DNA of 64,000 nt, taken from NCBI GenBank assembly GCA_963674855.2, contig CAXXST010000001.1, forward strand, positions 458,744 through 522,743. Direction: 5' to 3'. Positions 4,046-63,291 of this stretch are shown here, piece after piece (positions within the stretch are counted from its first letter, which is position 1; every line of letters begins with the position of its first letter). Position numbers and translations under genes: made by a program. Under the pieces are notes generated by a model. The model made no database searches. It was given only the letters and a program-made list of their open reading frames with translations, and was not told the origin of the DNA. The stretch is from Dehalococcoidales bacterium (lineage in GTDB: Bacteria > Chloroflexota > Dehalococcoidia > Dehalococcoidales > G020351185).

Positions 4046-5218
4046 TCAAACAGAATTTGATACAGAATTGTTTTTAGCCGCAGAATGCCGGTTAGGAGCG
4101 GATTCAAGGGTTTTGGTATAGTAATCAGCAACCCGGCGGGCAATTATATCCCAACTGTGTTCCTGTGCGTTAACCAGTCCCCTTTTCCCCATCCTTTGCC
4201 GCAGCGGCTGATTTTCTATAAGCGACGAAATGGCACGAGATAACGCTATTTCGTTCTTTGGTTCTACCAGCAAACCTTCCTTGCCGCTGGTAATAACACT
4301 GGCATAACCTTCAATGTTAGTAGCAACCACTGGCTTACCCAGAGCCATAGCCTCTAAAAGGACGATGCCGAAGCTTTCGCCGCCGGTTGCAGGAGAGCAA
4401 AAAATATCAGCCGTTTTATAATAGCGCGGCAGTTCGTCATAGGAAACCATACCGCGAAATACGATATCTTCAATATCGTTGCGTTTAACAAACTTTTCGT
4501 ATTTACGGCGGAATCTGACGCCGGGACCAACGACAATAAGACGGCAGTTGGGGTGGGTCCTCTTGACGCGGCGGTAAGCCCGCAGCAGATAGTTCAGCCC
4601 CTTGCGCTTTTCAAGGCGTCCTACGAATAGGATGTTCAGTTTGTCATCAACGAACTCCTCAATGGGTGCAGCATCAGGACAAAAATGCTTAAGGTCTATG
4701 CCGTTGGGAATAATATCATATTCGCCGTTTATATACTTGCTGGCATAGTTCTTGGCAGCGTTGGAAACGGCTATCCTGCCGTCCAGCTTGCGCTGGCGCA
4801 GCCGCAGTAAAATCTTGGAAAAAGGCCAGCCAAAGTTATAGCCGGGGCTGCCGTGGCAGGCATGGAAGGTGCCGATGTTAACCGCATTTGAAAAACGCAG
4901 CACGGCGCTGCATAGCATCGGCATAAACGGCTCATGAAGGTGAACAATATCAAACTTTTCACGCTCCATCACTTCTTGTATCTTGGACGCCAGTCGTAAT
5001 GAAAAACTTATGCGGATAGTAGTGCCGCGCACGGGGAACGGGCGCGCCTTGCCGATATGCAGAAAACGGTCATCATCAGCAGCGATTGAATGTGAAAGGG
5101 GAGATATAATCTTGACCTCGTGCCCCATATCTGTAAGCTGCTGATTAAGGGCGAGGATATGGTTGACAACACCCCCCGGATGACTAAAGTCATAAGGCGA
5201 AACCAGCGCAATCTTCAT
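4046..5218 (-). CDS. GT4 (GT-B fold) glycosyltransferase, PimA-like (candidate phosphatidylinositol mannosyltransferase)
   Basis: 390-aa ORF. The N-terminus MKIALVSPYDFSHPGGVVNHILAL..GHEV, the HLHEP motif and the GGESFGIVLLEAMALGKPVVA (E-x7-E region) closely resemble mycobacterial PimA as I recall it. It lies between a CDP-alcohol transferase and ino1. Confidence 0.7.
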   Translation of the reverse strand: MKIALVSPYDFSHPGGVVNHILALNQQLTDMGHEVKIISPLSHSIAADDDRFLHIGKARPFPVRGTTIRISFSLRLASKIQEVMEREKFDIVHLHEPFMPMLCSAVLRFSNAVNIGTFHACHGSPGYNFGWPFSKILLRLRQRKLDGRIAVSNAAKNYASKYINGEYDIIPNGIDLKHFCPDAAPIEEFVDDKLNILFVGRLEKRKGLNYLLRAYRRVKRTHPNCRLIVVGPGVRFRRKYEKFVKRNDIEDIVFRGMVSYDELPRYYKTADIFCSPATGGESFGIVLLEAMALGKPVVATNIEGYASVITSGKEGLLVEPKNEIALSRAISSLIENQPLRQRMGKRGLVNAQEHSWDIIARRVADYYTKTLESAPNRHSAAKNNSVSNSV

Positions 5219-5286
5219 AAAAAAACCGCCTTAATTACTTTGTTCCGTGTTTTATGTACCGCAAATCTATACAGCCTGATTCCCTG

Positions 5287-6390
5287 TTATTTTGAAGGCT
5301 TTTCAACAGGTTTGCACTCCGGTTGCTGGGTTATATATTCCTCAACCTTGCGGTGGGCTTCGTCATCTGTGTACTGCACCGGCGGTGACTTCATAAAATA
5401 TGAAGAGGGAGCTTTAAGCGCGCCCTTGATACCCCTGTCCAGAGCCAGCTTGCAGCAGCGGATGGCGTCTATAACCACGCCGGCAGAGTTGGGGCTGTCC
5501 CAGACCTCCAGCTTAAGCTCAAGGTTCAGCGGCACATCTCCGAATGCTTTGCCCTCCATGCGGATGTGGCAGAACTTACGGTCATCCAGCCAGGGAACAT
5601 GGTCGCTGGGACCTATATGGATATCGTCCGGGTCCAGCTTGTAGTCTAATTGGGAAGTAACAGAGTTTGTCTTGGATATCTTCTTGGATTCAAGGCGCTC
5701 GCGCTCCAGCATATTAAGAAAGTCAGTATTGCCGCCGAAGTTGAGCTGGTAGGTTTTTTCCATCCTGACGCCGCGGTCCTGGAAGAGGCGCGTCAGCACG
5801 CGGTGGACTATGGTTGCCCCCACCTGGGATTTAATATCATCACCGATGATGGGCAAACCCCTCTTTTCAAAGCGCTGCTGCCAGTATTTCTCACGGGCGA
5901 TAAAGACCGGAATGCAGTTTATAAAACCGCAGCCGGCTTCCAGTATCTGCTCTACATACCATTTGGTGGCTTCTTCGCTGCCTACCGGCAGGTAACTTAT
6001 GACTACATCTGTCTTGGTGTCTTTCAGGATTTTAACAATATCGGCGGTTGGTCCGGGCGCCTTTTCTATAACCTGTGATAGATATTTACCCAACCCGTCA
6101 TGCGTCATACCGCGTTCAACTTTGACGCCTAAAGGCGGCACTTCGCTGAATTTGAAGGTGTTGTTGGGAGGAGCGAAGATAGCCGTTGCCATATCCTTGC
6201 CGACCTTGTTCTTATCAATATCAAAGGCGGCTACGAAGTTAATATCGCTTATGTGATAACCGCCGAGGTTTGTGTGCATCAGACCGGGGATAAACTCAAT
6301 ATCCTTTGCTTTTTTATAGTATTCAACGCCTTGCACAAGCGATGAACAACAGTTGCCGACACCTATTACTGCTACATTTATTTTACCCAA
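5287..6390 (-). CDS. ino1: myo-inositol-1-phosphate synthase
   Basis: MIPS family ORF with NAD-binding N-terminus [18 protein letters not shown] and a conserved core. The track ORF runs to 6540, but that part has no homology-like sequence and overlaps a small conserved gene. I place the start at TTG 6390, preceded by GAAAGGGG (SD-like), giving 367 aa. Confidence 0.88.
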
Positions 6391-6505
6391 GTTAAGACCC
6401 CTTTCCAGTAAAAGCCAGGATTTTGGCGCAGGCTTCACTGCGATTAATAAGTTGTTTCTTTGCACGTTCCGGATATACGCTGCGAGTGCCGTTTTTAAGT
6501 TACAA

Positions 6506-6664
6506 CTAACACTTGCCGATGCGGAATACCCTGGTATCACAAACGGGGCAGATACCCTGCGTAGCCGGACGACCGTTCTTAAGGGTAATACGTTGCGGAT
6601 TCTTTATATCCCTCTTGGCGCGGCATTTAACACAATAAGCCTGCAACGATTTTACCCCCTGCAA
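6506..6664 (-). CDS. small zinc-ribbon protein (CxxC...CxxC), DUF5679-like, paralog of 40429..40569
   Basis: Hand-translated 52-aa ORF below the track cutoff: (TTG)[52 protein letters not shown]. It is about 75% identical by eye to the 46-aa ORF at 40429. The start is TTG and the SD is weak. Confidence 0.7.
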
Positions 6665-6723
6665 AACACTTTCTGAACTATAGCTATTTATAGCTGGATT
6701 GTCAAGGGTTGTGCCTGCTGGCT

Positions 6724-7614
6724 TCAGGCAAAGACCTTTTGCGGATGCCAGTTATCCTTTTCGGCATCAAAAACAAGTATCGCCAGCAGGTCATCCTCAT
6801 TATCATAGGCAAGGCATCTTTCGGTAACATCAGCCTTGACATGAATGTCCGTAATATCAATGCCGCTGCCGTATCTTATAAGCTGCGCTTTTTCATCATC
6901 AACGGTAATTTTCTGCCAGCTTTGCAGCACGCTGTCTATTGCATATACATATTTTTGCCAGTCATTGTCTTTTACCGCAGTCTCAAGCAGGGAAGGGGAA
7001 ACGGCGTCTTCAATAATAAAAGGTCCATAGGCAAGGCGGGCAAGCGCGCTGACGTGGGCGCCGCAGCCCAGCGCCTCTCCCAAATCATGCGCCAGAGAAC
7101 GGATATAAGTGCCGCGGCTGCATTCAATATCCAGCACAACAAGAGGCGGTTTGAATGAAACCAGATCCAGGCGGTATATGTGAGCCGGACGGCTCTTGCG
7201 TTCAACGCTGACGCCTTCTCTGGCAAGGCTGTATAGACGCTGCCCGTTATGCTTGACGGCGCTGAACATCGGTGGTGTCTGCTGTATATCCCCCCGAAAA
7301 CCTTCCAGAGACTTTTCAAGTTGCCGGCGGCTGACGGAGGAATAATCCGCCTGCATGGTTATTTTACCGGCGGCATCGTATGAATCAGTGGAAGTGCCAA
7401 GCACTATTTCTGCGCGGTAGAGCTTGTTGTCTTCCTGAAGGTATTCAATAACCCTGGTAGCCTTCCCGAAGCATATTGGAAGCACGCCTTCTGCCATCGG
7501 GTCAAGTGTGCCGGCATGACCGACACGTTTTTCCCCGATGAGCCTTCTGACAGCGGAAACGACACCAAAAGAAGTAATACCCGCAGGTTTACAGATATTG
7601 AGTATGCCGTTCAT
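6724..7614 (-). CDS. truB: tRNA pseudouridine(55) synthase
   Basis: 296-aa ORF with catalytic Asp motif GHAGTLDPMAEGVL and a C-terminal PUA-like region. It occupies the conserved position after rbfA. Confidence 0.94.
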   Translation of the reverse strand: MNGILNICKPAGITSFGVVSAVRRLIGEKRVGHAGTLDPMAEGVLPICFGKATRVIEYLQEDNKLYRAEIVLGTSTDSYDAAGKITMQADYSSVSRRQLEKSLEGFRGDIQQTPPMFSAVKHNGQRLYSLAREGVSVERKSRPAHIYRLDLVSFKPPLVVLDIECSRGTYIRSLAHDLGEALGCGAHVSALARLAYGPFIIEDAVSPSLLETAVKDNDWQKYVYAIDSVLQSWQKITVDDEKAQLIRYGSGIDITDIHVKADVTERCLAYDNEDDLLAILVFDAEKDNWHPQKVFA

Positions 7615-32768: not shown

Positions 32769-34361
32769 ATGAACCTGCAAAGACCAAATGCAAACGATGC
32801 CACCCAAACCGCCAACCGCTCCAAGAGCGTAGTGCCGATGAGCGGGATATGCAGCCGCTGTGTTGATGGCTGTACCGGCAACTGCGAAATTTTCAAATCC
32901 ACCTTTCGCGGAAGAGAATTAATCTATCCGGGACCATTCGGTGATGTAGTCGCCGGCGCTGATAAAGACTATCCGGTGGATTATTCTCACTTCAGCATAC
33001 ACGGCTATGCCATGGGCGCCAACGGGCTTCCCGAAGGCGTGGTTGGAGACCCGGATACGGCAACCTTCCCGGCAGTGAATACAGAGACGGATTATGGCTG
33101 GGACAAGAAAGTTAAGATGACGGTGCCTATTTTTACAGGCGCATTAGGCTCAACGGAAATCGCCCGTAAAAACTGGGAACATTTTGCCATCGGCGCTGCC
33201 ATCAGCGGCGTAACACTGGTGTGCGGCGAAAACGTCTGCGGTATTGATCCGCAACTGGAACGTAACAAGGACGGCAAGGTAACCAAGGCGCCGGATATGG
33301 ACAGGCGGATAGAGATATACCGCCGGTATCATCGCGGCTATGGTGAGATACTGGTGCAGATGAACGTGGAGGACACGCGGTTGGGTGTGGGCGAATATGT
33401 CATAGAAAAACACGGACTGGATACCATAGAGCTTAAGTGGGGGCAGGGCGCAAAGTGCATCGGCGGCGAGATAAAAGTAGGCAGCCTGGAGCGCGCTTTG
33501 GAACTGCAGAAGCGCGGCTATATTGTTACCCCGGACCCTTCAGACCCAGTCAATCAGGCAGCCTTTAAAGACGGCGCACTAAAAGAGTTTGAAAGGCACA
33601 GCCGCCTTGGCTTCATAGATGAAGAAGGTTTCTACAATGAAGTGCAGCGTTTAAGGGATATGGGTTTCAAGCGTATAACACTGAAAACCGGCGCTTACGG
33701 AATGCGTGAACTGGCGATGGCAATTAAGTGGAGTTCAAAAGCTAAGATAGACCTGCTTACCATAGACGGCGCCCCCGGCGGAACTGGCATGAGTCCCTGG
33801 CGCATGATGGAAGAATGGGGTGTCCCCAGCGTTTACCTTCATTCAGCGGCTTACAAGTTCGCCAAAAAACTGGCAGATAAGGGAGAACGCGTGCCGGATA
33901 TGGCATTCGCCGGTGGCTTCAGCACCGAAGACCATGTTTTCAAGGCGATAGCATTGGGCGCGCCTTTCACAAAAGCGGTCTGTATGGGCAGGGCATTGAT
34001 GATTCCGGGTATGGTTGGCAAGAATATAGCCAAATGGATGGAAAAGGGCAAGTTGCCCAATACCGTCGGGCAGTTCGGCTCTACGGTGGAAGAAATATTC
34101 GTGAACTACGAAGACGTTAAAAATATCGTCGGCAGCAATGAAATAAAGAACATACCGCTGGGAGCCATCGGTATATACAGCTACAGCGAAAAGATAAGAA
34201 TAGGCTTGCAGCAGCTTATGGCTGGCGCGCGCTGCTTCAGCATACCGGCGATAGAGAGAAAAGAGCTGATGTCGTTGACGGAAGAGTGTGCTAAAATATC
34301 CGGCATACCCTATGTAATGGAAGACCGCCTTGAAGAGGCTATGAAGATTATAGAGAGCTAA
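32769..34361 (+). CDS. glutamate synthase-related FMN-binding protein (archaeal-type GltB domain-2 homolog)
   Basis: 530-aa ORF with an N-terminal Cys cluster CSRCVDGCTGNC and a TIM-barrel GltS FMN-domain pattern (GALG, KWGQGAK, IDGAPGGTG, AFAGG). It has no amidotransferase domain. Confidence 0.82.
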   Translation: MNLQRPNANDATQTANRSKSVVPMSGICSRCVDGCTGNCEIFKSTFRGRELIYPGPFGDVVAGADKDYPVDYSHFSIHGYAMGANGLPEGVVGDPDTATFPAVNTETDYGWDKKVKMTVPIFTGALGSTEIARKNWEHFAIGAAISGVTLVCGENVCGIDPQLERNKDGKVTKAPDMDRRIEIYRRYHRGYGEILVQMNVEDTRLGVGEYVIEKHGLDTIELKWGQGAKCIGGEIKVGSLERALELQKRGYIVTPDPSDPVNQAAFKDGALKEFERHSRLGFIDEEGFYNEVQRLRDMGFKRITLKTGAYGMRELAMAIKWSSKAKIDLLTIDGAPGGTGMSPWRMMEEWGVPSVYLHSAAYKFAKKLADKGERVPDMAFAGGFSTEDHVFKAIALGAPFTKAVCMGRALMIPGMVGKNIAKWMEKGKLPNTVGQFGSTVEEIFVNYEDVKNIVGSNEIKNIPLGAIGIYSYSEKIRIGLQQLMAGARCFSIPAIERKELMSLTEECAKISGIPYVMEDRLEEAMKIIES

Positions 34362-34376
34362 AGTATAAAGGAACAG

Positions 34377-35405
34377 GTGGTAACGGATAAGAGGAATGGT
34401 CTTATGATAGGCCAGGAAGACAGGGAAGTTGAAAGGGCAAAGATAGCCATTCTGGCTATTCTGGCTGATTCGCAGAACGCAGTCGGCGGGCATGTGATTG
34501 CCCGCCGACTGAAGAACGACTATGGCATAGCCCTTTCCGAAAGGGCGGTCCGCTATCACCTCAAGCTGCTGGATGAGCGTGGTTTAACCAGCAAGGTGAG
34601 CCGCCGGGACGGACGCAGCATAACACCGCAGGGGCAAGAGGAGCTGAAAAACGCAATGGTAGCTGATAAAGTGGGCTTTGTTATAGATAAAATAGAGTTG
34701 CTGGCTTATCAGGCATCATTTGATATCAAGAGGTGCACTGGAAAAGTACCGGTGAATATATCGGTATTCAAGAAGCAAGAGTTTAAGGTCGCGCTAAGGG
34801 AGATGGAGGCTGCCTTTAAAAGCGGGCTGGGAGTAAGCCGGCTGGTGGAGGTGGCAGAAGAAGGCGAAAAGCTGGGTGACATATTGATACCACCGGGAAG
34901 CATCGGCATGGCTACTGTTTGCAGCGTTATAATAAACGGAGCTTTGTTGAAAGAGGGTATTCCCATGGATTCAAGGTTCGGCGGTATATTGCAATTGCGG
35001 AATAACCAGCCCTGGCGCTTCAGCGAACTTATAGAATACGCCGGTTCTTCGTTGGATCCCTCAGAGATTTTTATTACCAGCCGGATGACCAGCGTAAAGG
35101 AAGTGCTTAAAAATGGTAATGGTAAGATACTGGCTAACTTCCGGGAGATTCCGGCGGTGTGTGTTCCGGCAGCCGAAAAAATATTCAAAAAACTTGCAGC
35201 AGCCGGTATAGATGGTTTGATAACGATGGGAGAGCCGGGAAAACCGGTATGTGAGATGCCGGTGGGGCGCAACAAGGTAGGAATTATATTAATCGGTGGC
35301 TTGAACCCTGTGGCGGCGGCTGCTGAAGCCGGCATAGAGGTATCCAACAGGGCTATGAGCCGACTGATTGAATATGAGGAATTAAAGAGCTTTACGGAAC
35401 TGTAA
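34377..35405 (+). CDS. nrpR: NrpR-type regulator (winged HTH plus DUF128 regulatory domains)
   Basis: 342-aa ORF with an N-terminal wHTH (ILAILADS..VGGHVIARRL......SERAVRYHLKLLDERGL) followed by two DUF128-like repeats, as in the methanogen nitrogen repressor NrpR. Confidence 0.78.
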   Translation: MVTDKRNGLMIGQEDREVERAKIAILAILADSQNAVGGHVIARRLKNDYGIALSERAVRYHLKLLDERGLTSKVSRRDGRSITPQGQEELKNAMVADKVGFVIDKIELLAYQASFDIKRCTGKVPVNISVFKKQEFKVALREMEAAFKSGLGVSRLVEVAEEGEKLGDILIPPGSIGMATVCSVIINGALLKEGIPMDSRFGGILQLRNNQPWRFSELIEYAGSSLDPSEIFITSRMTSVKEVLKNGNGKILANFREIPAVCVPAAEKIFKKLAAAGIDGLITMGEPGKPVCEMPVGRNKVGIILIGGLNPVAAAAEAGIEVSNRAMSRLIEYEELKSFTEL

Positions 35406-47185: not shown

Positions 47186-49069
47186 CTATTTTTTATCTAT
47201 AAGCAGGCTCTGCTGCGGCAGACCGGCGGCGATATCCGGGCGGTAGTAGCCGCTGGGTTTCACCCTGTCCGGCGTCAGCAGGTCCTCTTTATTCAGTTTT
47301 TGTTCTTCAAAGCGGTAGGTAGCCCGTTCATAGCTGTAGCCCATGTAAAGGGCATCAAAGGGGCAGGATTCAACGCAAAGACCGCAGTAAATACACATCC
47401 CGCCATTAAGGTTGTATTCTTTAACTTCATAGGCGAGGTCGCAGCGCAGGCAGCGGCTGGTTTCTTTTATGGCGGAATCCTCATCCCAGCCGATTTCAAC
47501 CCCATCAAAGCTGCTAATGCGCCGTTTGTGTTCAATGGCGCAGGTGGGAGGGCGGATGCCGTTATCCGGTTTGCCGCAACGTTCCGGTATTTCTTCAGCC
47601 GGAGCAAAAGTCTCTTCTATATTGCCGCTGCCGCCAAGGTATTTGTCTATAGAAACAGCAGCCTGCCGCCCGTGGGCGATGGCTTCTATGGCGGTTGCCG
47701 GTCCGGTTACGGCGTCTCCGCCGGCAAATATGTATTCGCTGCCGGTGGCGGAAAGGGTATCCGGGTTAACAATAATCCTGTTGCTTTTGGCGGTTTCCAG
47801 CCCGAAGGAATCGGAAATATACGGCATCTGGCTGGTGGCGGCGATGATGTTATCCAGAGGGATATTAAACTGGCTGCCTTCAATCGGTTCGGGACGGCGC
47901 CTGCCGCTGGAATCGGCTGCCACCAGCTTCATACGCACGCATTCAAGCGTTAAACCGTCTTTATTATGGGATACTTTAGACGGCATCGCCAGAAAGATAA
48001 ACTTTATACCTTCGTCAATGGCTTCCTCAACCTCTTCAGGGCTGGCGGGCATTTCATAACGGCTGCGCCGGTAGATTATGGATACCTCTTCAGCTCCCAG
48101 CCGCAGCGCTGTTCTGGCGGAATCCATGGCGGTATTCCCGCCGCCGATAATCGCCACCCGGCTGCCCAGTTCCACTTTGTTGCCCAGGTTGACCTCGCGC
48201 AGGAAATCTATACCGCGAAGGACACCGGGGACATCTTCGCCCGGCACACCCAGACCAATCGCCTGGTGCGCGCCAACGGCAACAAAAACGGTGTCAAATC
48301 CCTGCTGTGCAAGGCTTTCGGGGCAGTCTATCTTCTTACCTGTAATAATCTCAACACCGATGTCGGTTATCTCTTTAATATCCGCTTTTAGCCTGTCTTT
48401 TGGCAGGCGGTAATCCGGGATGCCATAGCGCAGCATGCCGCCCGGTTCCGGCAGAGCTTCAAAAATGGTAACACTGTGCCCGCCGAGTTTAGCCAGATAA
48501 TAAGCCGCGCTGAGCCCAGCCGGACCGGCGCCGATTATTGCCACCTTCCGATGGCTTTCAGGGGCGCATTTTGAATTCTGCTTCCACAAATCATTGCCGT
48601 TATCCACAGCAAAACGTTTTAACATGCGGATGGCAATCGGCTGGTCTATGATGCCGCGGCTGCATGATGATTCACAGGGGTGGGCGCAGATATAGGCGCA
48701 AACAGAAGGGAAAGGAATCTTCTCTCGCACTACGGCTAAGGCTTCGGATGGCTTCCCCTGCCCTATAAAACGGATATATCTGGCGGCATCCACGTGGGAG
48801 GGGCAAGCTTGGCTGCAGGGCGCCGGAATAACACCTTTTTTGCCCTTTCCAGAAGTCTTTATCTCAATGCAACCGGTGGGGCAGCTATCGGCGCAGGTAT
48901 GGCAGCCGATGCATTTATCAGCAGACCAGGCAAGGATATTGCCGCGTATCCGCTTTGAAACGGTCAGCTTTTCCTCTGGGTATTGCGTGGTTATCGGCTT
49001 CCTGAAAAGATGCTTAAAGGTAACCGCCATACCCCTGGCTATGCCGTTGCCGTATCTTTCAAGCCGCAA
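47186..49069 (-). CDS. nuoI: NuoI (2x[4Fe-4S] ferredoxin subunit) with an inserted GltD-like NAD(P)H/FAD/Fe-S oxidoreductase module
   Basis: 627-aa ORF in the nuoI slot. It has the NuoI N-terminus (KPITTQYPEEK, CIGCHTCADSCP) and C-terminus (CIYCGLCVESCP). These are separated by about 480 aa carrying a Cys-rich region, VAIIGAGPAGLSAA, VAIIGGGNTAMDSA and FAGGDAV. Confidence 0.85.
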   Translation of the reverse strand: MRLERYGNGIARGMAVTFKHLFRKPITTQYPEEKLTVSKRIRGNILAWSADKCIGCHTCADSCPTGCIEIKTSGKGKKGVIPAPCSQACPSHVDAARYIRFIGQGKPSEALAVVREKIPFPSVCAYICAHPCESSCSRGIIDQPIAIRMLKRFAVDNGNDLWKQNSKCAPESHRKVAIIGAGPAGLSAAYYLAKLGGHSVTIFEALPEPGGMLRYGIPDYRLPKDRLKADIKEITDIGVEIITGKKIDCPESLAQQGFDTVFVAVGAHQAIGLGVPGEDVPGVLRGIDFLREVNLGNKVELGSRVAIIGGGNTAMDSARTALRLGAEEVSIIYRRSRYEMPASPEEVEEAIDEGIKFIFLAMPSKVSHNKDGLTLECVRMKLVAADSSGRRRPEPIEGSQFNIPLDNIIAATSQMPYISDSFGLETAKSNRIIVNPDTLSATGSEYIFAGGDAVTGPATAIEAIAHGRQAAVSIDKYLGGSGNIEETFAPAEEIPERCGKPDNGIRPPTCAIEHKRRISSFDGVEIGWDEDSAIKETSRCLRCDLAYEVKEYNLNGGMCIYCGLCVESCPFDALYMGYSYERATYRFEEQKLNKEDLLTPDRVKPSGYYRPDIAAGLPQQSLLIDKK

Positions 49070-51726: not shown

Positions 51727-52317
51727 TTACTCTTTGGAAATACTCCTCTTGGAAATCTTTTTGCGCAGCATCTCTATGCCGTGCAGCAGGGTTTCGGGGC
51801 GTGGCGGGCAGCCGGGGATATAGACATCTACCGGCACGATGTGGTTATATCCCGGAACCACTGAATAAGAGCCTTTAAACAATCCGCCGCTGATACCACA
51901 GGCGCCCATGGCGATTACCCACTTTGGCTCTGCCATTTGGTCATACAACCGCTTGACCTGGGGCGCCATTTTCCAGGTTAGCGTGCCGGCAGTAATCATT
52001 AAATCAGCCTGGCGCGGTGAAGCGCGCAGTATCTCCATACCGAAACGGGAGATATCAAAGCGATGAGAAGAAGCGCTGATAACCTCAAAGGCGCAGCAGG
52101 CGGGAAAACAGATTACAGGCCAGAGAGATGTCCTGCGAGACCAGTTAAGCACGGCATCTACGGTGGTTGTCAGTACATTGCGTTGCAACTCTTCGGTAAG
52201 CCAGCTATCAGGGTCTTCAATGGCAAACTGGCTGCCAGCTTTCAGCGATTCTATGACCACGCCCTCGTATTTGTCCAGATCTTTATCAGAATAGGGCTGT
52301 TTCTTATCTATTTCCAT
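51727..52317 (-). CDS. nuoB: NADH-quinone oxidoreductase subunit B
   Basis: 196-aa ORF carrying the cluster N2 ligands ([19 protein letters not shown]). It has an N-terminal extension of about 40 aa relative to typical NuoB. Confidence 0.93.
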
Positions 52318-52679
52318 TCCAGAGCCTTTTTGCGCCAGGCGTACAGATAGCCGATGACGATAATAAGAATAAAAACCATGGCGGCAAAAAAGCCGAATGC
52401 TCCCAAGCTCTTAAGCTCAACCGCCCAGGGATACAGAAAGATAACCATAACATCCAGGGCGATAAGCAACAGCGCGAAGAAATAGTAGCGGAAGTTAAAC
52501 TGCACCCAGGAGCGGCCGATGGTTTCCATGCCGCATTCAAAGGTTTGCGCCTTTACCGGATTTGGCTTTCTTGGCACTATCCTGAGCAGCCCCAGGATAA
52601 CGGGCAGCAGAATAAGAAAGGACGAAAATATAGAAGCAATCAACAGAAAAAGTGCTATATAACTGAAATTTTCTAACAA
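52308..52679 (-). CDS. nuoA: NADH-quinone oxidoreductase subunit A
   Basis: Three-TM NuoA core ([12 protein letters not shown]-like [11 protein letters not shown]). The start is set at the TTG at 52679, preceded by AGGAG, giving 123 aa. The track ORF extension to 52889 looks spurious. Confidence 0.85.
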
Positions 52680-52844
52680 TGGCAGTCTCCTATAGCGATG
52701 AGATTCTGCTGGAAACACGAAGCAAAGCAGTATATCACTTTTAGTGTTTTGAGACAAGCAGCCTGCCTTAACAAATCTGTAATGCACGCTGAATATAAGG
52801 CAGTATGCAATATATTGAGAGGGAATAAGGGTATTTCTGGCATA

Positions 52845-52884
52845 TTGACAAAGGGTTATTTTACAGCTAGACTTCAAGTCTTGA
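52845..52884 (+). promoter_or_regulatory. candidate promoter plus overlapping palindromes upstream of CetZ-like gene 1
   Basis: TTGACA (52845..52850), a 17-nt spacer and TAGACT (52868..52873). The palindromes AGACTTcAAGTCT (52869..52881) and TCAAGtCTTGA (52874..52884) overlap the -10/+1 region. Confidence 0.35.
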
Positions 52885-52903
52885 AACACAAGGAGGTGGC
52901 AAA

Positions 52904-54079
52904 ATGAAACTGGTCGTAGTTGGCTTTGGGCAGTGCGGCGGCAGGATTGCAGATGAGTTTGAAAGACTGGATAGAAGGGCGCGCAGCCTGCGCGGCATAG
53001 AGATAATTATAGACGCCTTTGCTGTTAATACAGATTCAACCGATATGTCCGGATTACACTCAATAAAACCGGATTACCAGCACCGCATACTTATAGGTTC
53101 CGGTACCACCCATGGTCATGGCGTAGCCAAGATAAATGAAGTTGGCGCTGATATAGCCAGGGAAGACTCTGATAAGGTAATAGACGCCATGAGGGGCAAC
53201 CAGAGGCTCTTTGAAACGGATGCCTTTTTGCTGGTTGCCAGCGCTGCTGGCGGTACTGGTTCCGGGGCGGTATCGGTGATAGCTAAGGCATTGAAGGAAC
53301 GCTTCGCTGAAAAGCCGGTATATGCTCTTATAGCGCTGCCTTTTGAGCATGAAGAGGTAAATGAAGAAAGGGCTTTATATAATACGGCTGTCTGCCTTAA
53401 ATCGGTCTATTCTATAGCAGATGCCGTTATACTGGTGGATAACCAGAGATACGTAAGAAAAGACTATTCATTGCAAAGCAATATGACGAAGATAAACCAG
53501 CTTATAGTAGAGCCGTTCTTTGATATGCTGTGTGCCGGTGAAGAGAAAAAGAAACGGCACATTGGCGCCAAGACGCTGGACGCCGGCGATATAATACAAA
53601 CTCTCTGTGGATGGACGGCTATCGGTTACGGCGAAATAAAGTTACCGCTTATTACATTGCCTACAGACTGGTCAAAGAATTTCAGAAAGCGCGGCACCAA
53701 GACGCACAAGGGGCTGGAAGCGATGGACCAGGCGCTGAGTGATATGTCTATAGAGTGCAATCCGCAAGATGTTAACCGGGCGCTCTACCTGCTTTCGGCG
53801 CCGGTTAAAGAGATGAACATGGACATGGTAAAAGAGATGGGAGACTATCTGCGGACTTTTGCGCCGCAGGCAATTATAAGGAATGGAGACTATCCCAGGG
53901 AAAAGGGCTTGCTGGATGTTAGCGTTATACTGTCTGAGCTCAGCGATGTTGAAAAGGTAAGGTATTATTACGAGAAATCAGCGGCACTGGCGCAAGAGAT
54001 GAAGAGAAGGCAAAAAGCGAAGACTTCAAAGGCTGCCCTAACCGAAGATGCAGGCAAGGATGTGCCGACACTGCTTTAG
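52904..54079 (+). CDS. tubulin/FtsZ-superfamily GTPase, CetZ-like (paralog 1)
   Basis: 391-aa ORF with T1 loop VVGFGQCGGRIADEF, T4 signature AAGGTGSG, VDNQRY, a T7-like LDAGDIIQTL, and GDYP in the C-terminal domain. The SD AAGGAGG is present. Confidence 0.8.
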   Translation: MKLVVVGFGQCGGRIADEFERLDRRARSLRGIEIIIDAFAVNTDSTDMSGLHSIKPDYQHRILIGSGTTHGHGVAKINEVGADIAREDSDKVIDAMRGNQRLFETDAFLLVASAAGGTGSGAVSVIAKALKERFAEKPVYALIALPFEHEEVNEERALYNTAVCLKSVYSIADAVILVDNQRYVRKDYSLQSNMTKINQLIVEPFFDMLCAGEEKKKRHIGAKTLDAGDIIQTLCGWTAIGYGEIKLPLITLPTDWSKNFRKRGTKTHKGLEAMDQALSDMSIECNPQDVNRALYLLSAPVKEMNMDMVKEMGDYLRTFAPQAIIRNGDYPREKGLLDVSVILSELSDVEKVRYYYEKSAALAQEMKRRQKAKTSKAALTEDAGKDVPTLL

Positions 54080-55088: not shown

Positions 55089-55270
55089 CATAAAAAGGAA
55101 TATAGTTGATTACCAGCCCTTCGAGTTGCCCCTCCTAACGGCTTTTGGTCTATGGAATGCAACCGATAAGGTACAAGGGGAAACCTTTATGCCGCCCGTA
55201 TTTGGAAAGGAGGGTGAACAGGATAGCGGATTTCCTGTTTATAACGCCTCCATAGGGGGCGTTTTGTTTA
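55089..55270 (+). promoter_or_regulatory. candidate Moco (molybdenum cofactor) riboswitch with terminator, upstream of moaA
   Basis: It lies downstream of TTGACA-17-TATATT (55060..55088). Long-range pairing CCCTCC...GGAGGG is possible, and the 3' element GCCGCCCGTATTTGGAAAGGAGGG resembles the conserved Moco-motif 3' half as I recall it. A terminator hairpin AACGCCTCC-ATA-GGGGGCGTT plus TTGTTTAT follows (55243..55270). Confidence 0.5.
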
Positions 55271-60219: not shown

Positions 60220-62106
60220 ATGCTGAAAGATGAAATAAACGAAGGTGAAGAGATAGCAAAATCAACCAAAGCAGCGGTTGAGGAGTCTATAAAGGTATCG
60301 CGGGAAGCCATAAAAAGCGCCCAGAGAATCAGCAAAGCTAACAAAAAATACGCCGATGAAACAAAAAAGGCGGCTCAGGAAGCTATAAACCGGGCTGATA
60401 GAACTGCAAGAACAGCAGAGGAGATGGCGCAGGAATATGCCAGAAAATATGAAACGGCGATAGCCCGCGCCGAAAAGGCTGCCGAGATAGCCGCTGAAAC
60501 AACCGATGCGCTGAACAGGGGTTTCATGCAGGCAATGGAAAGAGCCGAAGCCAGCCTGAAATCAACACAGGAAAGCGCAGAGGCATTAGCTGTTTCGTAT
60601 AGGGAAGCAATTAAAAAGGCAGAGGAAAGAGCAGAGGCAAGCATACAATCAACGCAAAGAACTGCCGAAGAAAACATAAAATCAACACGGGAAAACGCCG
60701 AAGCATTAGCTGCTTCCTATCGGGAAGCAACAAGACAGGCGGAAGAAAGGGTTGAAGAAAATATACGGTCAGCACGGAAAATCGCTGAGGAAAGTATAAA
60801 GTCAACCAAAGAAACCGCAGAGGCTTTGACGGCGGCTTATAAAGAAACAGCCATTCAGGCTGAAGAGCAGGTAAACGAAGTAAAAGAAAGCGTGAGAGCA
60901 GCCATACGGGAATCCCAGAAGACAATGAAAAAGGTTGATAAGAATATAAGGACGACACAGGAAAAGGCAGAGCGCTCTATAAGCGTAGCCCGGGAGGTGC
61001 TTTTAACAGCCGATGAAATGGAAAGAACGGTTGGCGAAGACGCCAGCGAGGCTCTGCGCGTATCCACAGAAGCCAAAAGCCGGGTTGAAGAGGTGGTTGA
61101 ACTGGCACGAAAAGTTACATCAGAGGCCAAGATAGCCTCGAGGGATGCGGTGCGCAGCGCTGAAAAGGCGGCAAAAACCGCAGAAGATTCGGTGAAAACA
61201 TATAATACGGATTTCAACAAGGCGATAAGAAAAGCCGAAGAAGCCAGTGGCTGGGCAAGGCAGGCAGCCGAGAAATCAATGAACAAATCGCAGGAGGCCA
61301 TAAAGCGCATAGAAGAAATGAGCCGATCCTCCAGAGAGGTTGCCGAGGAGTCTATAGAAGTATCGCGCGGGGCAATAGCCCGAGCCGAGGAAGTGGGCAA
61401 GGAAGCGTTAACCGCCGCCGAAGAAGCGCAAAAAGCATCGCGGGAGGCGGCGCATATAGCCGAAGAGATGAGCAAATCAGCCAGACAGTTGGCTGAAGAA
61501 TCAGTGGCAGAGTCCCGGGAATCAGCCAAAAAAGCTTATGAAATCAGCAAATCGGCAATGGATACAGTTATTGCATGGAAGGAAGAGTTCCAGCAGGCAT
61601 TAAGTAAGGCGGAGGAAATAGTCAATTCCGCTATAGAGATAACCGGAAGCTCAAAGAAAACATCGCAGGAAGCCATAAAGCAGATTGAGGAAAAGAGCCT
61701 GTCGGCAAAGCAGGAAGCAGGGAAAGCAATAGCCGCCGCCAGACAAGCTGCCGAAACATCCAGAAAAGCCGCTCAGAAGGCTGCCGATGCCTGGATAGGC
61801 ACTTTCCGAGAGCTGGCTGACGAAGCCGGAGACGTCCGGCGCACGACGGGCAGAATAACCCGTAATATAGCCGAAGAAATGGCAAAGCTGCCGGAAGATA
61901 TTGAAGACGGAGTGGTGCTGGAATGCAGCAATGAAGCGGCGCCAACAGAAGTAAAGGAAAATGGCAAGGGCGGAAAGAAAGCGGAAAAGAAGGGCGTTAA
62001 AGATATGCGCAAATCCCGCCTGGAAGCCCTGGAAAAGATGTTTGCTTCTAACAAGGGCGAAACGGAAGACGACAGCCCGTCTATAGATTTAGAAGACGAC
62101 GACTAG
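60220..62106 (+). CDS. Ala/Glu/Lys-rich, predicted all-alpha coiled-coil protein with 40-aa tandem repeats and acidic C-terminal tail
   Basis: 628-aa ORF with no TM segment or signal peptide. It has a pervasive A-x-E-x-[SA]-x-K/R heptad- or 11-mer-like pattern, three exact-period 40-aa repeats, and the tail GETEDDSPSIDLEDDD. The SD AAGGGAAGG is present. Confidence 0.75.
   Translation: MLKDEINEGEEIAKSTKAAVEESIKVSREAIKSAQRISKANKKYADETKKAAQEAINRADRTARTAEEMAQEYARKYETAIARAEKAAEIAAETTDALNRGFMQAMERAEASLKSTQESAEALAVSYREAIKKAEERAEASIQSTQRTAEENIKSTRENAEALAASYREATRQAEERVEENIRSARKIAEESIKSTKETAEALTAAYKETAIQAEEQVNEVKESVRAAIRESQKTMKKVDKNIRTTQEKAERSISVAREVLLTADEMERTVGEDASEALRVSTEAKSRVEEVVELARKVTSEAKIASRDAVRSAEKAAKTAEDSVKTYNTDFNKAIRKAEEASGWARQAAEKSMNKSQEAIKRIEEMSRSSREVAEESIEVSRGAIARAEEVGKEALTAAEEAQKASREAAHIAEEMSKSARQLAEESVAESRESAKKAYEISKSAMDTVIAWKEEFQQALSKAEEIVNSAIEITGSSKKTSQEAIKQIEEKSLSAKQEAGKAIAAARQAAETSRKAAQKAADAWIGTFRELADEAGDVRRTTGRITRNIAEEMAKLPEDIEDGVVLECSNEAAPTEVKENGKGGKKAEKKGVKDMRKSRLEALEKMFASNKGETEDDSPSIDLEDDD
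60556..60915 (+). repeat. three tandem 120-nt (40-codon) in-frame repeats inside the coiled-coil gene
   Basis: The units start at 60556, 60676 and 60796, with the consensus [LI]KST[QRK]E[SNT]AEAL[AT][VA][SA]Y[RK]E[AT]..[KQ]AEE[RQ]. DNA identity between units is clearly visible by eye. Confidence 0.85.
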
Positions 62107-62115
62107 ATTATTAAA

Positions 62116-63291
62116 TTAAAGCAGCGAGGGAATGTCCTTGAAGGCTTCCTCTATGCCCCTGTGCTGGAAATCTATGCTTCCCTGACGCCTCTTGGCAGTA
62201 GATATATAGCTTATCGCTTTTGTGAAGTAGTTCATCACTTTCTTTGAATTGACCAGTTCTGAAAGTATGGTGGTTACCTCAATCGTGTTCTTGCCTCTGG
62301 GGTAATCACCGCTTCTTATGACGGCTTCGGTTGCCATACTCTTCAGTGAAGAAGAAAGCTCTTTTATAAGGTCCATGCTCATCAGTTCGTGCGGCGCCGT
62401 CAGCAGGTATAAGCCCTTTCTTGCGTCTGTGGGGTTGCACTTCAGTGAAAGCTCTCCCAGTGCTTCATCCATAACCTGGATACCCTTTTGTGTAGAGCCG
62501 CCTTTATCCCTGAAATCGCGTTTGCCGTCAAAGGGAAGCCTCATGCGGGACATCTTCTCCCTGCCATGACCGATAACCGTCCAGCCTGCCAGCGTCTGGA
62601 TAATGTCTCCGGCGTCCAGTACACGGGAACCGACATACCTGGAATCCGTCTCTTCGCCGGCGCAAAGCAGGTTATAAAACGGCTTGACGATATGATAATT
62701 GATTTTAGCCAGGTTGTTTTTTATAGAGACGTTTTTGGTGATGTAACGCTGGTTATCAACCAGGAAAATGGCATCTGCCGCAAGATAGGCGGACTTGAGG
62801 CAGGTGCCTACATTATAGATAGACCTCTCCTCGGTAATCTCTTCATATTTGAAGGGCAGGACAATCATGTTGTAAACCGGCTTATCTACAAAACGCTCCT
62901 TAAGCTGCTGGGTGAATGCCGGAACAGAGCCCGAACCGGTTCCGCCGGCAGCCGAACCAACCACCAGAAAGGCATCCGTGTCAGCGAACTTATCGGTGGC
63001 GCGGATAGCTTCTATAACTTTGTCTCCATCATCATGGGCAATTTCAGCGCCGATGTCGTTCATCTTGCCGACGCCATGACCGCCGGTCTTCTTGCTGCCG
63101 ATGAGAATTCGGTGCTGGAAATCAGACTTTATATAGTTAAGCCCACTGAGGTCAGCCACATCTGTGTTGACCGCCAGGATATTGGTAACTATGGAAAGCC
63201 CGCGCTGGGCGCGGGCAACTCTATTCAAACGGGAGAATTCGTCGGCAATCCTGCCGCCGCACTGACCGCAACCTATAACCAGAAACTTCAC
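62116..63291 (-). CDS. tubulin/FtsZ-superfamily GTPase, CetZ-like (paralog 2)
   Basis: 391-aa ORF with a GTG start preceded by GGAGG. It has T1 VIGCGQCGGRIADEF, T4 AAGGTGSG, VDNQRY, LDAGDIIQTL and GDYP. About half of its positions are identical to paralog 1 by eye. Confidence 0.8.
   Translation of the reverse strand: MKFLVIGCGQCGGRIADEFSRLNRVARAQRGLSIVTNILAVNTDVADLSGLNYIKSDFQHRILIGSKKTGGHGVGKMNDIGAEIAHDDGDKVIEAIRATDKFADTDAFLVVGSAAGGTGSGSVPAFTQQLKERFVDKPVYNMIVLPFKYEEITEERSIYNVGTCLKSAYLAADAIFLVDNQRYITKNVSIKNNLAKINYHIVKPFYNLLCAGEETDSRYVGSRVLDAGDIIQTLAGWTVIGHGREKMSRMRLPFDGKRDFRDKGGSTQKGIQVMDEALGELSLKCNPTDARKGLYLLTAPHELMSMDLIKELSSSLKSMATEAVIRSGDYPRGKNTIEVTTILSELVNSKKVMNYFTKAISYISTAKRRQGSIDFQHRGIEEAFKDIPSLL

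Follow-up and report, generated by a model that had tools for sequence, protein, structure and literature searches.

Introduction

To our knowledge, no tubulin-family protein other than CetZ is known to control cell shape in prokaryotes, and the family is usually called euryarchaeal. On the bacterial side, lineages of Dehalococcoidia are reported to carry an archaeal-style S-layer in place of a peptidoglycan wall, and Dehalococcoides cells are discs. In the present work, a stretch of 64,000 nucleotides from a Dehalococcoidales bacterium (contig CAXXST010000001.1; the whole stretch is called the window below) was analysed. It encodes two CetZ-like proteins, paralog 1 and paralog 2, and we report that paralog 1 is a real GTPase of the tubulin/FtsZ superfamily, with the archaeal CetZ proteins as its closest relatives.

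The CetZ family has been described as archaea-specific (Brown & Duggin 2023, PMC9856176). CetZ1 of Haloferax volcanii polymerises with GTP and binds liposomes. Its E218A mutant is GTPase-blocked and stabilises the polymer, and replacement of the C-terminal LESLF by AESGG makes the protein non-functional and abolishes rod formation (bioRxiv 10.1101/2024.04.08.588506). CetZ-like proteins in 'Chloroflexota-Dehalococcoidia', matched by a CetZ_C hidden Markov model (HMM), were listed by Santana-Molina et al. (2023, PMC9871819), who saw no inter-domain transfer for FtsZ itself. The dcw/peptidoglycan genes are gone from Dehalococcoidales and from the SAR202 cluster, where mraZ-mraW-ftsA-ftsZ persist; wall genes are retained in basal Dehalococcoidia (PMC10608941). 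In the proteome of Dehalococcoides mccartyi BTF08, FtsZ (btf_0595) and an 'FtsZ/Tubulin GTPase' (btf_0551) were both quantified (Kruse et al. 2021, PMC8163811). Furthermore, the Pfam family PF21011 already appears in public annotation, and 'tubulin-like protein CetZ' is the name given to one JGI entry.

The bare existence of bacterial CetZ-like genes is thus already known. An earlier reading of the window, made from its letters alone (the sequence-only reading), had held that nothing of this kind was described in bacteria, which was too strong as far as existence is concerned. In the literature searched, no earlier description was found of how large the bacterial clade is or that it is monophyletic, nor of its occurrence in both wall-less lineages, the pairing of paralogs, the neighbouring gene families (F1 and F2 below) or the FtsZ-like tail.

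Results

Family and fold of paralog 1

The gene under study is the following:

52904..54079, + strand: CetZ-like tubulin-superfamily GTPase, paralog 1 (ATG open reading frame of 391 amino acids; 'B-type' copy by synteny)

When searched against Pfam, paralog 1 gave a Tubulin match (PF00091, E 2.7e-30) over residues 3-182 and a CetZ_C match (PF21011, E 3.2e-14) over residues 189-356, the latter scoring 53.2 bits for a gathering score of 21.6 bits. In the same search, neither FtsZ_C nor Tubulin_C was matched, and Tubulin_2 (PF13809) reached 20.2 bits, under its cut-off of 27, on residues 108-205 only. With the FtsZ equivalog model of NCBIfam (TIGR00065), the score was 61.8 bits, under a cut-off of 295.2. 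Judged by the Tubulin and CetZ_C matches and by 5643 homologues found at E<=1e-5, paralog 1 is not a chance open reading frame.

Next, sequences of known structure were searched. The best match in the PDB was H. volcanii CetZ1 (4b46, E 1e-39, paralog 1 residues 1-365), with CetZ2 (4b45) at E 1.6e-29 and a Methanosaeta CetZ (3zid) at E 6.5e-11 in the N-terminal domain only. The best FtsZ was found at E 3e-10, and gamma-tubulin (E 1.4e-7), BtubB (E 1.3e-6) and BtubA (E 1.5e-5) gave partial matches.

An AlphaFold (AF2) model of paralog 1 was obtained from an alignment of 102 sequences, with a predicted local distance difference test (pLDDT) of 88.2 and a predicted template modelling score (pTM) of 0.87. 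It superseded a run on a shallow alignment of 36 sequences, in which the pLDDT was 59 and the C-terminal domain was disordered. Upon comparison with the PDB by Foldseek, CetZ1 ranked first, with a template modelling score (TM) of 0.92 and a root-mean-square deviation (rmsd) of 2.0 Å. CetZ2 came next (TM 0.92), then both chains of 3zid (TM 0.82-0.83), so that CetZ proteins filled ranks 1-4; FtsZ proteins followed at rmsd of at least 3 Å, and TubZ appeared at rank 34. As modelled, paralog 1 has the two-domain CetZ fold.

The CetZ_C match, the order of the PDB sequence matches and the Foldseek order agree with the sequence-only reading, which had placed the overall pattern closest to archaeal CetZ rather than to FtsZ, BtubA/B or TubZ. 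Two of the checks that it had proposed, an HMM search and the comparison of a model with CetZ structures, came out on the side of CetZ.

Nucleotide pocket and T7 residues

The functional motifs of paralog 1 are located as follows:

52922..52942, + strand: T1 loop G7-F-G-Q-C-G-G13 (GxGQxGG, tubulin/CetZ type)
53249..53266, + strand: T4 signature GGTGSG, residues 116-121
53579..53590, + strand: T7 acidic pair D226..D229, aligning with CetZ1 D215/E218
53885..53896, + strand: GDYP, residues 328-331, in the CetZ C-terminal domain (inside the CetZ_C match 189-356)

The motifs quoted in the sequence-only reading were all found in the translation: VVGFGQCGGRIADEF at residues 5-19 (T1, GxGQxGG type), SAAGGTGSG at 113-121 (T4), VILVDNQRY at 175-183, LDAGDIIQTL at 225-234 (T7) and GDYP at 328-331. 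T1 reads GQCGG in paralog 1 versus GVGGGGG in Escherichia coli FtsZ, and is thus of the GQxGG type, as had been stated, and not of the FtsZ type.

The 102-row alignment was made of 82 bacterial sequences and 20 CetZ1. As the H. volcanii CetZ1 query returned only near-identical haloarchaeal CetZ1 orthologues, the latter served the alignment and not a survey of diversity. In this alignment, 27 columns were invariant, among them N42, D47, G116, G117, S120, G121, N180 and D226. In T1, G7, G9, Q10 and G12 were conserved in all three sampled groups, one gapped SAR202-type row excepted. In T4, the two residues lying between the invariant ones, T118 and G119, were kept in at least 99 of the 102 rows. 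In GDYP, G328, Y330 and P331 were invariant across the bacterial groups and CetZ1.

In the tubulin/FtsZ superfamily, the T7 acidic residues complete the GTPase site of the neighbouring subunit in the protofilament. D226 was present in 102/102 sequences; position 229 was Asp in all 82 bacterial sequences and Glu in all 20 CetZ1. The same pair also aligned with D209/D212 of E. coli FtsZ. A loss of GTP-binding residues, which would have spoken against the sequence-only reading, was looked for on the alignment and none was lost. As read from the alignment, the GTP pocket of paralog 1 is complete (T1 GxGQxGG, T4 GGTGSG, N180), and the T7 pair is present. Judged by this conservation, the nucleotide-binding and catalytic positions of the bacterial proteins are under selection.

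Comparison with known systems

Paralog 1 and the H. volcanii CetZ1/CetZ2 proteins share the PF00091 + PF21011 architecture, with a length of 391 versus 395 amino acids. Common to them are also the MKLxxxGFGQxGG N-terminus, GHGVG, GGTGSG, the T7 DxxD/E and GDYP, as well as a C-terminal end made of a long helix and, after it, a short hydrophobic tail. Identity is 31% over the full length, for a TM of 0.92 and an rmsd of 2.0-2.4 Å. They differ by the bacterial host, by a separate clade (see below), by the T1 Cys of paralog 1 (GQCGG), which is Ala in CetZ1, and by LPFExEE and DNQ in paralog 1 versus LPGxDEG and DND in CetZ1/CetZ2. The gene neighbourhood is also different, with the coiled-coil families F1/F2 in Dehalococcoidales.

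The 'non-canonical' CetZ of Methanosaeta (Methanothrix) thermophila (3zid) shares with paralog 1 the GQCG T1, LPF.EEG and ILVDNQ, and superimposes with a TM of 0.82. However, it is a far weaker sequence match and it falls outside the CetZ1/2 and bacterial grouping in the tree described below.

With E. coli FtsZ, paralog 1 has in common the superfamily fold, the T4 GGTGxG, the two T7 Asp (NVDFAD versus LDAGD) and a C-terminal D-I-P-x-(F/L)-L peptide. In contrast, identity is about 20%, T1 is of another type, and the C-terminal domain is that of CetZ and not FtsZ_C. Furthermore, canonical FtsZ sits with ftsA and dcw remnants, whereas the CetZ-like genes adjoin nuoA and DegV here, and GAPDH, F1/F2 and dnaX elsewhere.

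Finally, the Dehalococcoidia group of Santana-Molina et al. (PMC9871819) is almost certainly made of the same proteins, which a CetZ C-terminal HMM matches at about 1e-10. That group was called 'sparse paraphyletic' in one sentence, whereas 5643 homologues were found here and the bacterial sequences were monophyletic by neighbour joining. The conserved tail, the two paralogs and the conserved neighbourhood go beyond its description.

The C-terminal peptide

In the model, the long helix of residues 350-384 is followed by a short terminal peptide:

54056..54076, + strand: extreme C-terminal peptide KDVPTLL, residues 385-391

The pattern KD[VI]P[TSN][LV][LFI] formed the C-terminal end of 120/120 Dehalococcoidales-type homologues. 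SAR202-type copies ended with ..LPNL, ..LPDL or DDVPLL. The KD(V/I)P(T/S)LL tail of the bacterial proteins differs from that of CetZ1, where DELESLF was the end in 120/120 orthologues, and comes close to the FtsZ C-terminal peptide, the E. coli FtsZ tail being ..DYLDIPAFLRKQAD. This E. coli peptide binds FtsA and ZipA. On the strength of its conservation, the bacterial CetZ-like tail is a docking-type element. Two members of the bacterial clade, P0242 (499 amino acids) and P0245 (480 amino acids), have C-terminal extensions of about 100 residues and are devoid of the terminal DxPxLL.

Distribution and phylogeny

The window is bacterial, since an L10 leader, a molybdenum-cofactor (Moco) riboswitch and a long-arm tRNA-Tyr were found in it. 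The best 120 homologues of paralog 1 were all 387-392 amino acids long and their names, where given, were Dehalococcoidia, Dehalococcoidales or Chloroflexota bacterium. When GTDB species were scanned with one genome each, 24/24 related loci belonged to metagenome-assembled genomes (MAGs) of Dehalococcoidia, and all labelled close relatives were Dehalococcoidia, Chloroflexi or SAR202. These bacterial elements and relatives bear out the Dehalococcoidia-type host supposed in the sequence-only reading. When 1.84 billion cluster representatives were searched by HMMER, 1214 relatives were obtained at E<=1e-3 and 69 at E<=1e-30.

A neighbour-joining (NJ) tree was built from 65 full-length representatives, both window paralogs, 14 labelled Dehalococcoidia sequences, CetZ1, CetZ2 and the 3zid fragment. 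E. coli FtsZ alone was the outgroup; tubulin, TubZ and archaeal FtsZ were left out. One clade of 40 sequences held all the labelled bacterial sequences and both paralogs (bootstrap 0.915). Within it, a deep sub-branch (bootstrap 0.995) was made of marine Chloroflexi/SAR202 sequences, e.g. 'SAR202 cluster bacterium Io17-Chloro-G2'. The remaining sequences included Halobacteria, Thermococci and Nitrososphaerales and did not form one supported clade (bootstrap 0.11). The bacterial clade was placed beside the archaeal sequences containing CetZ1/2, with a joint node support of 0.16-0.49, and the Methanosaeta CetZ together with one Euryarchaeota MAG sequence branched outside both groups.

The NJ tree, in which the archaeal sequences form no supported clade, is compatible with a bacterial clade that is the sister of archaeal CetZ as well as with one that arose inside it. 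The restriction to archaea, a descriptive and not a mechanistic trait of the CetZ family, does not hold here, the host being bacterial. Among the archaeal sequences nearest to the bacterial clade were two CetZ-family proteins labelled Nitrososphaerales (Thaumarchaeota), P0281 and P0286, at 32-33% identity. In another Dehalococcoidales MAG (L013), three CetZ-like copies were found in 9 kb (386-1561, 1661-2833 and 6001-7179). The first of them branches off deep in the clade and shares only 39% identity with paralog 1.

With E. coli FtsZ as tblastn query (E<=0.01), no canonical ftsZ was found in the window, nor any FtsZ-like match beyond the CetZ-like genes. Since Dehalococcoidales keep a separate ftsZ beside ftsA, and D. 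mccartyi has both proteins, the CetZ-like proteins add to FtsZ and do not replace it.

A second paralog and a conserved neighbourhood

The second CetZ-like copy that the sequence-only reading had implied lies further downstream, next to a repeat protein:

62116..63291, - strand: CetZ-like paralog 2 (391 amino acids, 53% identical to paralog 1, 'A-type' by synteny, ending with KDIPSLL)
60220..62106, + strand: F1, all-helical repeat protein (628 amino acids, 25-residue period, rich in A/E/K/R/S)

Paralog 2 has the same Pfam domains as paralog 1, with a CetZ_C match of 60.9 bits, and is convergent with F1, 10 bp lying between the stops. Upon clustering of open reading frames, 13 of 25 related loci showed the order GAPDH(+) / CetZ-like A(+) / F2(-) / F1(-) / CetZ-like B(+) / dnaX-ybaB-recR ... 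recO(+). The A and B labels come from synteny, which backs the orthology. A split of the paralogs into orthologous clades by phylogeny was also tried and had weak support only (0.36, 0.39).

The F1 proteins are 477-744 amino acids long and consist for 69-81% of A/E/K/R/S/Q/T, with a 25-residue repeat under which no DNA tandem repeat was found. They carry FEKAVARAE near the N-terminus and ARLDFLARMY (RLxxLxxM(Y/F)) near the C-terminus, then an acidic tail. For the window F1, weak matches to ApoLp-III (E 2e-4) and Phasin_2 (E 0.019) were obtained, and for the F1 of locus L007 (3506-5740, - strand) Phasin_2 was above threshold (E 8e-15). These matches may be compositional. In the PDB, the only relatives of F1 were designed helical bundles at E>0.05. 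F1 could partner the CetZ-like proteins, whether as an amphipathic, a surface-binding or a filament-associated protein. A 614-amino-acid neighbour in L001 was considered as an F1 homologue and rejected for want of any similarity.

The F2 proteins are coiled-coil proteins of 145-189 amino acids with a conserved C-terminus (EQAWNIYAKLSR). They are always found between CetZ-like A and F1, at L007 (2925-3446, - strand) and 12 other loci.

In the window, the pair of paralog 2 and F1 is kept. About 6 kb with DegV, molybdenum-cofactor and Usp genes separates this pair from paralog 1, which lies beside nuoA. The closest relatives of the window (L001, L002 and L004) have the DegV-moa side in common with it and endonuclease III upstream.

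SAR202-type CetZ-like genes are without F1/F2. The next gene downstream, on the same strand, encodes a conserved protein of about 290 amino acids without Pfam domain (L027 9320-10180 versus L030 7374-8246, 35% identity, E 2e-28), and the L027 copy has an N-terminal transmembrane helix. It is possibly a membrane partner distinct from F1/F2.

Immediate surroundings of the gene

Upstream of paralog 1, two elements were read from the sequence:

52845..52873, + strand: sigma-70-like TTGACA-17-TAGACT (10/12 match; pattern only)
52890-52898, + strand: Shine-Dalgarno sequence AAGGAGGTG, 5 nt 5' of the paralog 1 ATG

The strong Shine-Dalgarno sequence announced by the sequence-only reading is thus present with its 5 nt spacing. 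The promoter that it assigned to the gene exists as a sequence; the scan of the paralog 1 region, however, counted 3 promoter-like sites versus 2.8 expected from shuffles, a density not above chance, so that the match counts as a pattern only. Both flanking genes, nuoA upstream and DegV downstream, are on the opposite strand. By this layout, paralog 1 stands alone, monocistronic and divergent from nuoA, as had been proposed.

The listed nuoA reading frame (52308-52889, - strand, 193 amino acids, GTG) is over-extended, its Pfam match spanning residues 101-192 only. The TTG at 52679, preceded by GGAGA, is likely its start, which would give a NuoA of about 123 amino acids and a divergent intergenic region of 224 bp. 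A TG-extended TTGTCT-17-TATACT is present on the minus strand of this region (52757-52729). A functional link between paralog 1 and nuoA was considered and rejected. In the relatives' loci the adjacency is not conserved; because they carry endonuclease III or GAPDH upstream instead, it is incidental and has no functional meaning.

Other features of the window

On the DegV side of paralog 1, the Moco riboswitch mentioned above is found:

55107-55228, + strand: Moco riboswitch (55 bits, cut-off 36), 5' of moaA-moaC-MOSC and directly downstream of the DegV gene

Between nuoD and nuoH, the nuo operon lacks nuoE/F/G. It includes, directly downstream of nuoH (47186-49069, - strand), the gene of a 627-amino-acid protein in which a GltD-like NAD(P)H flavoprotein (Pyr_redox_2, Fer4_20) is combined with two 4Fe-4S motifs, possibly an alternative electron-input module.

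An NrpR-type regulator (PF01995, E 1e-86) is encoded at 34377-35405 (+ strand), adjoining a glutamate-synthase-domain gene (32769-34361, + strand). NrpR is known chiefly from methanogenic archaea, as their nitrogen repressor, and this would be another archaeal-flavoured gene in the host bacterium. At 4046-6540 (- strand), a myo-inositol-1-phosphate synthase gene adjoins a GT4 glycosyltransferase gene; the pair may make inositol-containing lipids or solutes.

Discussion

Taken by its sequence features, paralog 1 is probably a functional bacterial member of the CetZ branch, forming a membrane-associated, GTP-driven polymer that would serve as a scaffold for cell shape or envelope in the wall-less Dehalococcoidia. 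By analogy with CetZ1, paralog 1 would polymerise head-to-tail in a GTP-dependent way. Its KD(V/I)P(T/S)LL tail would hold the polymer at the inner face of the membrane by binding a partner, for which the candidates are FtsA, retained in these lineages, and the neighbouring helical-repeat proteins F1/F2. Paralog 1 would work together with paralog 2, possibly by co-polymerisation, and the two would form a cytoskeletal scaffold organising shape or envelope in Dehalococcoidia without peptidoglycan. Division would stay with the canonical FtsZ-FtsA pair.

D. mccartyi BTF08 expresses the tubulin/FtsZ-type GTPase (btf_0551) as well as FtsZ and, encoded nearby, a hypothetical protein (btf_0548); all three were less abundant in a co-culture in which the cells passed from discs to barrels (PMC8163811). 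If btf_0551 belongs to the same family, as we presume, and if btf_0548 corresponds to F1, the proteome and the morphology are circumstantial support for a role in shape.

Several points weigh against a shape or envelope scaffold. The link with peptidoglycan loss rests on the presence of these genes in two wall-less lineages. Hydrophobic C-terminal tails are general to the superfamily, and the likeness to the FtsZ peptide may have come down from an ancestor instead of pointing to FtsA binding. As for the neighbours, F1 and F2 are in convergent or divergent arrangement with the CetZ-like genes and not in an operon. F2 was not detected in the window, and F1 is missing near the gene in L011 and L015 and, for paralog 1, in L001-L004. 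Because the SAR202-type copies have a different neighbour, no partner is universal.

The main alternative, to which we give perhaps one chance in a few, makes paralog 1 an accessory tubulin of the divisome. Its tail would share FtsA with FtsZ or compete for it, and the protein would assemble with FtsZ at the division site and drive or stabilise constriction without septal peptidoglycan synthesis. Paired division tubulins exist in archaeal FtsZ1/FtsZ2 and in the FtsZ pairs of plastids. The resemblance of KD(I/V)P(S/T)LL to the E. coli DIPAFL fits this explanation, as do the retention of FtsA and FtsZ in these lineages (PMC10608941) and the joint drop of the tubulin-type GTPase and FtsZ of D. 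mccartyi in the co-culture with altered morphology (PMC8163811). However, no ftsA-ftsZ linkage was seen at any locus examined, the SAR202-type tails (LPNL/LPDL) are less FtsZ-like, and archaeal CetZ1 has been reported to act in shape and not in division (PMC9856176; bioRxiv 10.1101/2024.04.08.588506).

It is quite improbable that, instead of determining shape, the protein is a scaffold positioning surface structures or metabolic or respiratory complexes. For some archaeal CetZ subfamilies, a role of this kind has been put forward, the multifunctionality of CetZ having been proposed from gene neighbourhoods (Brown & Duggin 2023, PMC9856176), and in the window paralog 1 does adjoin the nuo operon and molybdenum-cofactor genes. 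Yet the nuo adjacency is not conserved, that of DegV-moa occurs only in the closest relatives L001, L002 and L004, and the conserved neighbours are the coiled-coil proteins and housekeeping genes (GAPDH, dnaX-ybaB-recR).

A tubulin for the segregation of plasmid or prophage DNA, of the TubZ/PhuZ type, is effectively refuted. TubZ is found among the distant fold matches, and weak matches to phrog_17961, of unknown function, were obtained (E 1e-3 and 6e-6). Against these stand the lack of any bacterial plasmid match (the plasmid matches listed and their organism tally were haloarchaeal, 2 of 32 records having no name), a native composition (GC 0.48-0.50 for both paralogs versus 0.49 for the window), the chromosomal housekeeping context kept across many species, and the genes flanking paralog 1, neither of which is TubR-like.

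That the gene is the organism's own FtsZ, as records such as 'cell division protein FtsZ [Dehalococcoidia bacterium]' or 'cell division GTPase FtsZ' name it, FtsZ being the commonest name in databases, is hardly tenable in view of the TIGR00065 score (61.8 versus 295.2 bits), the lack of an FtsZ_C match, a T1 of GQCGG rather than GGGGG, the failure of E. coli FtsZ to find anything in the window at E<=0.01, the separate canonical ftsZ beside ftsA in Dehalococcoidales (PMC10608941) and the presence of both proteins in D. mccartyi (PMC8163811).

Thousands of database entries label CetZ-like proteins 'cell division protein FtsZ', which is misleading. For the family, the existence of a large conserved CetZ-like clade in Bacteria likely reflects either inter-domain transfer or ancient retention within the tubulin superfamily. 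The clade is a natural test of whether CetZ function follows the type of envelope or the domain of life, and it bears on how wall-less bacteria hold a defined shape. Furthermore, D. mccartyi is culturable and important for bioremediation, and the proteins are small and soluble, so that the hypothesis of a shape scaffold is open to biochemistry and to cryo-electron tomography.

As a tentative extension of this scaffold hypothesis, which we regard as possible but clearly less probable than the scaffold itself, the common ancestor of Dehalococcoidales and SAR202 may, on losing its peptidoglycan, have become reliant on a CetZ-type cytoskeleton, whether retained or taken over from archaea. In Dehalococcoidales, a module of four genes (the two paralogs, whose products may co-polymerise, F1 and F2) would then set the disc shape under the S-layer-like envelope. 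If true, Bacteria would have their own counterpart to the haloarchaeal CetZ shape system, and a shape determinant of the tubulin family would be known from them for the first time.

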